This document shows, piece by piece, positions 49,845-50,621 of a DNA stretch of 54,876 nt. Source of the DNA: a virus (lineage: Duplodnaviria; Heunggongvirae; Uroviricota; Caudoviricetes); the IMG/VR virus record IMGVR_UViG_3300030250_000013, one strand, 5' to 3'. Position numbers and translations under genes: made by a program. The stretch's first letter is position 1; each line of letters opens with the position of its first letter. The notes under the pieces were generated by a model, which did not search any database, was not told the origin of the DNA, and worked only from the letters and a program-made list of their open reading frames with translations.

Positions 49845-50621
49845 ATGAAAAAGAACCTTTTAGACGAATTGATAGATTTAAAAGGCGGGGTACAAAATGC
49901 TGTTGAATACCTTAATCGTCGAGGTGTTAAGGTAACCATTGGTCGTTACAACCAATGGTTAAGCGGTAGGTTTCATCCTAAATATGAAACGATCAGTATT
50001 ATTCTTGAAGAGATTACTGACTTCACACTGTCACCTTCGCCAGTACAACATTCTGACGAAAACATTGTTCTTAAACACACAATACCGGTTACCGAACTGC
50101 GTCAGAAATTACCATACAGGCGTTTTGCTAATAACTACTGGCAACGTGTCAGATACGTTGATTCACAGATCCTGGAAGCTGTTCACGGTCACGACGTGTG
50201 GGCACGGTTTGAGGCGATGTGCGGTAATTTTGAATGTGCAAGATACGTGTTACGCAGGAATTTAAACGAACACACCGTTACTGACAGTTGGATTCAGAAT
50301 GGTTTGCGCCGGGGCTGGATCCCAGAATGTGTAAACGTGATGGTCGATTTGCTTGAAAAATACGAAGGCACCGGAACACCGTTTAACGTGATGGTTTGTG
50401 AAGCACCTGTAGCACGAGTGGAAGCACCTGTAGCACGAGTGGAAGCACCTGTAGCACGAGTGGAAGCACCTGTAGCACGAGTGGAAGCACCTGTAGTCGA
50501 TGTCAGCGATTTGAAGGAGAAAATCAGACTGTATGCGTTATCACACAACCCGCATTGCGATGTAGATAATATGCCGGACGATGTTGTTTTGATGATGTAT
50601 AAAGATATGATGGGTCAATAA
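49845..50621 (+). CDS. putative DNA-binding regulator with (EAPVARV)n linker
   Basis: Start at ATG 49845 after AAGAAGGGTG; N-terminal HTH-like GVQNAVEYLNRRGVKVTIGRYNQWLSG; 21-bp tandem repeat at 50400-50504. Confidence 0.45.
   Translation: MKKNLLDELIDLKGGVQNAVEYLNRRGVKVTIGRYNQWLSGRFHPKYETISIILEEITDFTLSPSPVQHSDENIVLKHTIPVTELRQKLPYRRFANNYWQRVRYVDSQILEAVHGHDVWARFEAMCGNFECARYVLRRNLNEHTVTDSWIQNGLRRGWIPECVNVMVDLLEKYEGTGTPFNVMVCEAPVARVEAPVARVEAPVARVEAPVARVEAPVVDVSDLKEKIRLYALSHNPHCDVDNMPDDVVLMMYKDMMGQ
50400..50504 (+). repeat. 21-bp tandem repeat, 4 full copies plus one variant, in frame
   Basis: Unit GAAGCACCTGTAGCACGAGTG; shares the 13-nt core AGCACCTGTAGCA with the 30-bp repeat at 9618-9694. Confidence 0.85.

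Follow-up and report, generated by a model that had tools for sequence, protein, structure and literature searches.

A candidate autoregulatory helix-turn-helix protein and the palindromic sites beside its gene in a 9NA-like siphovirus genome

Main findings

We analyzed a gene of a 9NA-like (Sashavirus/Nonanavirus) siphovirus genome, located on the + strand at positions 49845-50621 of IMG/VR record IMGVR_UViG_3300030250_000013 (the whole stretch of 54,876 nucleotides is called the window below), together with the palindromic sites that lie between this gene and terS. From the comparison of the region among relatives, we consider it fairly probable that the gene product is a regulator that binds DNA at specific sites, and that it would read the palindromes as a dimer through its N-terminal helix-turn-helix (HTH) domain. 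Autorepression would be the most likely primary circuit, since the sites crowd over the gene's own putative promoter. The regulator is probably a repressor, and terS and the promoters near 32.8 kb are probable further targets.

An initial annotation of this DNA had proposed the protein as a good candidate for the reader of the palindromic sites. This proposal gains support at the sequence level from four pairings between types of N-terminal domain (N-domain) and types of site, and from a natural cassette swap in phage BDX09P1.

The repeated site is a 19-bp palindrome, TARTRCA-N5-TGYAYTA (type 1 below; TAATACACAACGTGCATTA is an example). The features that carry the argument are the following:

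49845-50621, + strand: coding sequence of the putative regulator, 258 amino acids (aa) and stop; orthologues are Sasha gp81, 9NA gp84, and AVIO78A_105 (PHROG 25538)
49372-49816, no strand: palindrome array in the spacer between the gene and terS, with copies starting at 49372, 49401, 49537, 49690, 49711, 49743, and 49767, and a weak copy at 49798
32779-32860, no strand: second site locus, with perfect palindromes TAATACAGAACGTGTATTA at 32779-32797 and 32842-32860, 63 bp apart
49675-50075, + strand: exchangeable specificity cassette, comprising the gene-proximal sites, promoter, ribosome-binding site, N-domain, and linker 1

The second locus had been missed in the initial annotation. When up to two mismatches were allowed, palindromes were found at these two loci and nowhere else in the window. 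Seven copies with at most one mismatch were observed against 0.12 expected, and all nine copies with at most two mismatches lay within 938 bp of two intergenic regions, where 0.18 were expected.

Covariation of N-domains and sites

At the equivalent places, the spacers of relatives carry arrays with lineage-specific sequences, mostly inverted repeats around a 5-bp spacer. We distinguished four types of N-domain (helix-3 sequences in parentheses), each paired with its own type of site, and found no exception in the lineages examined:

N1 (TIGRYNQW), with type 1, TARTRCA-N5-TGYAYTA: the window, Sasha, Bas82, and five IMG/VR contigs
N2 (SVGRYNEW), with type 2, AATCCTNTSATAG: BDX09P1 and the P0003 contig
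N3 (T[TV]TR[YF]REW), with type 3, TAACA-N5-TGTTA: 9NA, P0016, P0018, and L027
N4 (K[GS]R[YF]xEW), with type 4, ACCAGAWGT, perfect form CTTACC-N5-GGTAAG: Klebsiella phages, P0019, and SP-062

In 9NA (15888, 15957) and in Klebsiella phage VLCpiS10a (34595-34685), we found the same layout, about seven sites by the gene plus a pair at the capsid locus, built in either case from the lineage's own type of site.

Two natural exchanges are the most informative cases. BDX09P1 and the window share 26-64% identity inside the cassette of about 400 bp and 95-100% on both of its flanks. Within the cassette of BDX09P1, the type-1 sites are replaced by five type-2 sites, which are found nowhere else in its genome. 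In SP-062, an N4-like N-domain (64-71% identity to the Klebsiella phages and P0019, 48% to 9NA) is joined to a 9NA-like central domain (85%), and the genome carries both type-3 and type-4 sites. Besides, a stand-alone N3 open reading frame (ORF) of 69 aa lies just upstream of the full-length gene of SP-062 (L005:281-490); it is 79% identical to the 9NA-type N-domain and looks like a fossil of a cassette insertion.

These comparisons bear directly on the possibility that another protein reads the palindromes: TerS if they form a pac site, the ParB-like protein if they form a centromere-like site, or the primase. The regulator gene would then be merely regulated, or its product would act through protein-protein contacts. 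The array does lie directly upstream of terS, 9NA reportedly uses pac-directed headful packaging, and the ParB-like gene is common to the window, Sasha, 9NA, and the Klebsiella phage. However, TerS, the ParB-like protein, the primase, and the NinH-like protein are disfavored as readers because they keep 87-100% identity where the sites change; across the two natural swaps, the value is 87-99% for TerS, the ParB-like protein, and the primase. TerS is 82-99% identical across the four site types (88% between the window and the Klebsiella phage). Its N-terminal region hardly differs between the window (type 1) and the Klebsiella phage (type 4), and the Bas82 variant of this region (type 1) resembles that of P0018 (type 3). 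Despite their different sites, the window and 9NA share 90% identity in the ParB-like protein and 92% in the primase; for the regulator, the figures are 42% overall and 30% in the N-domain. In BDX09P1, the type-2 sites stand alongside TerS, ParB-like, NinH-like, and primase proteins that are 99-100% unchanged from the window (NinH-like 100%; it is 71% identical to that of 9NA). An HTH_3-like profile matched no other ORF of the window, and no other Xre-like ORF was detectable there. Altogether, we give a reader other than the regulator only a slight chance.

Predicted protein architecture

The domain map was drawn from alignments and an AlphaFold2 model, with a mean predicted local distance difference test (pLDDT) score of 77.8 and about 90 in both HTH domains:

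49845-50018, + strand: residues 1-58, N-terminal Xre/Cro-like HTH domain, a lineage-specific module
50019-50069, + strand: residues 59-75, variable linker 1, of low model confidence, with a length and sequence that differ in every lineage
50070-50387, + strand: residues 76-181, conserved central region with the LPHRRF motif and the second HTH unit
50400-50504, + strand: residues 186-220, heptad linker, EAPVARV x4 and EAPVVDV, predicted to be disordered (pLDDT < 50 at residues 187-217)
50505-50618, + strand: residues 221-258, C-terminal two-helix domain with the motif NPxCDxDxxPDDVVxxxYKDM

The predicted helices of the N-domain span residues 5-13, 16-25, 32-40, and 47-57, and residues 32-40 (IGRYNQWLS) are the putative recognition helix. 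As in the Xre/Cro-C1 group, the model displays a compact helical bundle with the HTH at helices 2 and 3. The N-terminal segment that the initial annotation had described as HTH-like, VEYLNRRGVKVTIGRYNQWLSG, covers helix 2, the turn, and helix 3 of this predicted Xre-type fold. Profile and structure methods, to which that annotation had referred the question, came out in favor of an HTH.

A second HTH unit, absent from the initial annotation, was predicted at residues 117-176 (50193-50372), with four helices that repeat the helix pattern of the N-domain. The two domains aligned with each other in hhalign with a probability of 72% (E 3.5e-5, 52 columns). The orthologues of the Klebsiella phages carry the central unit in duplicate, giving three HTH domains per chain. 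At about 1e-5, the family profile also matched multi-HTH_3 proteins verified in Pfam; the matches run through positions 25-64 of the N-domain, the region of the recognition helix. The central unit displayed no profile similarity to HTH_3, and its sole profile link is to the N-domain.

The C-terminal domain could serve for dimerization or for binding a partner. It appears to be exchangeable too, because two metagenomic relatives of 270-274 aa (P0020 and P0021) keep the N-terminal and central domains and carry a different and longer C-terminal region.

Free-standing N-domain-like proteins of 69-86 aa were also present in metagenomes (P0024, P0025, P0030). A further stand-alone protein of 67 aa (P0031) matched the part of the profile that corresponds to the central domain and, by eye, also resembles the N-domain.

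Sites, promoters, and the AT-rich element

Two further features of the spacer relate the sites to transcription and to a conserved sequence element:

49785-49813, + strand: putative proximal promoter, TTGCAC-17 nt-TATGAT, read by eye
49568-49676, + strand: AT-rich element of 109 bp that includes a 9-bp unit (TATCTATGT-like) three times in tandem and recurs at 32657-32764 with 89% identity

At the gene, the site at 49767-49785 abuts the putative -35 hexamer, and the weak site at 49798-49816 overlies the promoter spacer as well as the -10 hexamer. Several sites of this first locus are preceded by TTTACAG, which resembles TTGACAG, the -35 region of the phage consensus promoter. At the capsid locus, the two sites are flanked by divergent consensus promoters, whose matches start at 32567 (- strand) and 32874 (+ strand), and the site at 32842-32860 is just upstream of the A/T-rich stretch that precedes the -35 hexamer of the + strand promoter. 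BDX09P1, 9NA, and Klebsiella phage VLCpiS10a also have this two-site arrangement, with distances of 63-69 bp, and the asymmetric 5-bp spacer is in the opposite orientation in BDX09P1.

A repeat block related to the AT-rich element is present at the equivalent place in 9NA, SP-062, and the Klebsiella phages, although their palindromes differ. A short ORF within the 109-bp element was dismissed, as it is not preserved from one copy to the other.

The AT-rich element suggests the main rival reading, in which the protein binds a replication origin in the manner of the replisome organizers lambda O and SPP1 G38P. The palindromes would then be iterons, the 109-bp element the unwinding region, and the loci at 49.5 and 32.7 kb two origins, or an origin and a cis-replication region. 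The N-terminal domain would bind the DNA and the tethered C-terminal domain would recruit the helicase or primase, with the sites at the promoter serving autoregulation as in a plasmid Rep. At both loci, arrays of 19-bp inverted repeats adjoin the conserved AT-rich element with its three tandem repeats, and the related block persists in every lineage examined while the palindromes change. In SPP1, two origins are bound by one protein, and the plan of a DNA-binding N-terminus, a flexible linker, and a small C-terminal domain resembles that of lambda O.

Against this, searches of Pfam (with 15 family members) and PHROG linked the protein to no replication initiator family by sequence or profile, and the fold neighbors of the predicted model argue otherwise. 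The gene lies outside the replication module: primase, helicase, and polymerase are at 1.7-11.8 kb, with the early operon in between. GC skew tracks the orientation of the genes and shows no sign of an origin. The site flanks mimic -35 hexamers, and the sites are on or beside promoters. Finally, the phage has a P4-family primase-helicase, and in P4 the primase-helicase itself recognizes the origin. We therefore take a role as origin-binding protein to be quite unlikely.

Proposed mechanism

For the regulator that we favor, the protein would combine two Cro/Xre-type HTH domains with a small C-terminal domain on a flexible repeat spacer. The covariation suggests that the N-terminal HTH, as a dimer, would read TARTRCA-N5-TGYAYTA, whose half-site centers would be about 12 bp apart, roughly one helical turn. 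Five or six sites lie over or just upstream of what would be its own promoter, a position that points to repression of its own synthesis. The sites by terS and the pair at the divergent promoters of 32.8 kb may place those units under the same control. The heptad repeat would act as a length-variable tether only.

Several observations weigh against this reading. Pfam returned no HTH family for the window protein at E-values up to 1, nor for 15 members of the family at E-values up to 10, and no NCBI-style family matched any of these 15. Searches of the sequences in the PDB with the protein and with both domain profiles gave no match, and every Foldseek E-value for the whole model was above 1. 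The turn of the N-domain HTH is two or three residues longer than the canonical one. The comparison of the N-domain with the HTH_3 repeats reached 92.5% in hhalign (E 5e-7, 27 columns over the recognition helix) and is partly circular, because these repeats came from the family profile's own matches.

At the DNA level, a sigma-70 consensus scan detected no promoter in the intergenic region between terS and the gene, and the promoters named there were read by eye only. The independent covariation events are few (about four types and two clear swaps), because the lineages within each N-type are related. Moreover, the sites and the N-domain are physically adjacent, so their joint replacement could partly reflect linkage. 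The chief difficulty is posed by BDX09P1, which retains type-1 palindromes at four places (two beside terS, two at the 32.8-kb locus), although its only copy of the protein has the foreign N-domain and no N1-like domain is present anywhere in its genome. These type-1 sites may be orphans in a recent recombinant, or they may be read by the unchanged central HTH or by a third protein.

The second of these options leads to a division of labor, in which the swappable N-domain reads the gene-proximal sites only, for autoregulation, and the central HTH reads the sites on the terS side and at the capsid locus. It would explain BDX09P1, where a foreign N-domain comes with new proximal sites, type 1 persists at the distal ones, and the central domain is 95% identical to that of the window. 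The central unit is a confidently predicted Xre-like HTH in the model, and its putative recognition helices sort by site type: EHT[VI]TDSW with type 1 (window, BDX09P1) and GRRITADW with type 3 (9NA, SP-062). However, the proximal and distal sites of the window, 9NA, and the Klebsiella phages are of one type, and both domains would need to read the same sequence there. SP-062 combines type-4 sites with a central domain of the 9NA kind, which leaves only the N-domain to read these sites in that genome. Taking into account also that the central unit lacks profile similarity to HTH_3 and that the whole case is one recombinant genome, we regard such a division as very unlikely.

A broader arrangement, unlikely but worth stating, is a modular bipartite reader, in which a swappable cassette of operators and N-terminal HTH is mounted on a conserved second HTH and a tethered C-terminal effector. 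The two HTHs would read two classes of sites, and the gene's own promoter would be wired apart from the sites at terS and the capsid locus. Exchange of the cassette between co-infecting relatives could then act as an immunity switch without lysogeny.

Heptad-repeat linker

The exactly repeated seven-residue linker of the initial annotation was recovered by Tandem Repeats Finder (TRF) as a 21-bp tandem repeat at 50400-50496, with 4.6 copies and 100% identity. The number of heptad copies differs among relatives:

Window: 4 + 1 variant
BDX09P1: 2 + 1
Bas82: 3 + 1
AVIO78A: 4 + 1
A JGI contig: 7 + 1
Sasha: about 13
9NA, SP-062, and Klebsiella phages: none

The unit is homogenized within each genome (EAPVARV, EPPVARA, EPPVSRV). 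The heptad repeat is a length-variable tether without a part in reading the sites.

Other in-frame linker repeats rich in Pro, Ala, and Val were observed in the window:

9615-9694, in ORF 9015-9836: 30-bp unit x2.7, 100% identical, in frame, encoding TPAAAPVAAP
32286-32336, in ORF 32165-32542: 21-bp unit x2.4, 100% identical, in frame, encoding VEPVTTA
7504-7555: 27-bp unit x1.9, 76% matches, listed with the same group

The 12-mer AGCACCTGTAGC is common to the repeat at 9.6 kb and the repeat of the regulator gene. Repeats of this kind look like a general route of the phage to make linkers.

Database and literature searches

The family is very narrow: an exhaustive profile search over 1.84 billion representatives retrieved 16 proteins at E-values up to 0.001, six of them below 1e-30. 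Its only PHROG match was 25538, with no function assigned in PHROGs, and all 23 phage records that encode a relative label it as hypothetical. In the library searched, we found no paper on gene regulation in 9NA-like phages; the papers that mention 9NA or Sashavirus are silent on this gene.

A small terminase (Pfam DNA_Packaging_2) was considered and discarded. Four of the 15 members gave hits at E-values of 0.019 or higher, which is the noise range, the window protein gave none, and the phage's own TerS is encoded by the neighboring gene. Rfam displayed nothing above noise in 49200-50700.

Comparison with known systems

The closest likeness is to phage regulators of the Xre/Cro-C1 type (434 Cro, P22 C2, N15 Cro, and the anti-CRISPR-associated, or Aca, proteins). 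As in these systems, the putative targets are inverted repeats whose half-sites are spaced by about one helical turn and which overlap the presumed promoter of the regulator gene, and this gene is a small separate regulatory unit. Unlike them, the window protein matches no Pfam HTH model and has a longer turn; it carries two HTHs per chain (three in the Klebsiella phages) and a C-terminal domain on a repeat tether of variable length. Also, the window phage is strictly virulent and has no lysogeny module. An Aca regulator was rejected: directly after the gene come a terminator and convergent genes, with no acr gene downstream, and the likeness is in fold only.

Lambdoid immunity cassettes (imm434, imm21, immP22) offer a parallel for the swaps, since operators and the recognition part are exchanged together between otherwise near-identical genomes (BDX09P1 and the window, SP-062 and 9NA). 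Here, however, one protein domain is exchanged rather than a repressor/Cro gene pair, the distal sites of BDX09P1 were not exchanged with the cassette, and there is no prophage immunity to confer because the phage is virulent.

Lambda O and SPP1 G38P share with the window protein the repeated 19-bp symmetric sites by an AT-rich element at two loci, and the N-terminal DNA-binding part, linker, and small C-terminal domain. They differ in that no sequence or fold match links them to it and in that the window gene is outside the replication module. Compared with bipartite HTH readers such as the eukaryotic POU domain, the window protein lacks a homeodomain, and its two HTH domains are paralogues of each other.

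There is no new principle in this: phage HTH repressors and immunity cassettes are textbook material. The proposed role would be the first functional assignment for PHROG 25538 (Sasha gp81, 9NA gp84), hypothetical in every deposited genome examined, and it outlines a small putative regulon in 9NA-like phages, made of the gene itself, terS, and the capsid-locus promoters. The four putative regulator/operator pairs, with two natural domain swaps, could serve as orthogonal parts. The 9NA-like phages are used in biocontrol of Salmonella and E. coli and are now part of the BASEL collection (PMC11990801).

Genome setting and neighboring genes

Over positions 49300-50700, the window shares 94-96% identity with Sashavirus 536P12, E. 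coli phages AVIO78A and PDP46, and Salmonella phages Sasha, Sergei, and Solent. A near-identical genome was found in IMG/VR contig L021 (IMGVR_UViG_3300014770_000007, 39.6 kb), where the encoded protein is 100% identical to that of the window and the seven-site array is the same.

The ORF of the initial annotation (49845-50621, + strand, 258 aa) is real. We preferred its start at 49845 over an upstream ATG at 49809 on account of a Shine-Dalgarno sequence (AAGAAGGG) at 49830-49837 and of the aligned N-termini of all orthologues. The strong terminator reported after the gene was also recovered, as a hairpin at 50626-50646 with an 8-bp stem (six G-C pairs) and a T run behind it. The annotation of phage Sasha carries a matching set: gp81, a 'direct tandem repeat region', and a terminator.

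50626-50652, + strand: intrinsic terminator, hairpin and T run, between the gene and the convergent early operon of the - strand
48661-49296, - strand: terS (PHROG 51)

Two statements on the gene's surroundings needed revision. It had been described as the only gene that adjoins the array and is transcribed away from it, which is incorrect, as terS is also divergent on the other flank. Its monocistronic character applies to the window phage and not to some relatives: in 9NA, the gene is followed by gp83 on its own strand, and in SP-062 and the P0016 lineage a co-directional ORF precedes it.

The synteny is constant: terS (-), a spacer of about 500 bp that is AT-rich and rich in repeats, the gene (+), and a convergent long early operon with the ParB-like gene and an HD hydrolase. 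A block upstream of terS, at 49327-49357 (TTTCCCACAGATACCCACGGGTTGTCCACAC), has conserved counterparts in 9NA, the Klebsiella phage, P0018, and P0019. Related 10-mers (CCCGTGGTTA, CCCGTGGTAA) occur 11 times in the window, one of them (49817) just upstream of the Shine-Dalgarno sequence of the regulator gene.

In one protein from a JGI contig (P0002, 316 aa), the N-terminal extension of TerS and its first five residues (…KFMKISD) run directly into residue 8 of the regulator (ELIDLKGG…). Such a fusion would require an inversion and a deletion of the entire spacer, and a chimera formed during assembly at a short microhomology is the probable cause.

Thirteen near-identical strong promoters with an A/T-rich upstream stretch were found in the window, with the consensus AAAATAATTCTTGAC(A/G)GATTAC and none in the spacer between terS and the gene. 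They probably drive the early units and the clusters of small genes on the opposite strand. The matches start at:

98 (-), 1642 (-), 6951 (+), 7015 (+), 32567 (-), 32874 (+), 36771 (+)
38543 (+), 40765 (+), 44213 (+), 45983 (+), 47597 (+), 48085 (+)

Between 32.5 and 49.3 kb, terS, terL (42381-44144), the portal gene (39335-40690), the head morphogenesis gene (34478-35437), and the capsid operon (from 32542 leftwards) each stand isolated on the - strand. Clusters of small genes on the + strand, with consensus promoters of their own, separate these morphogenesis genes, among which the capsid operon alone has an evident promoter.

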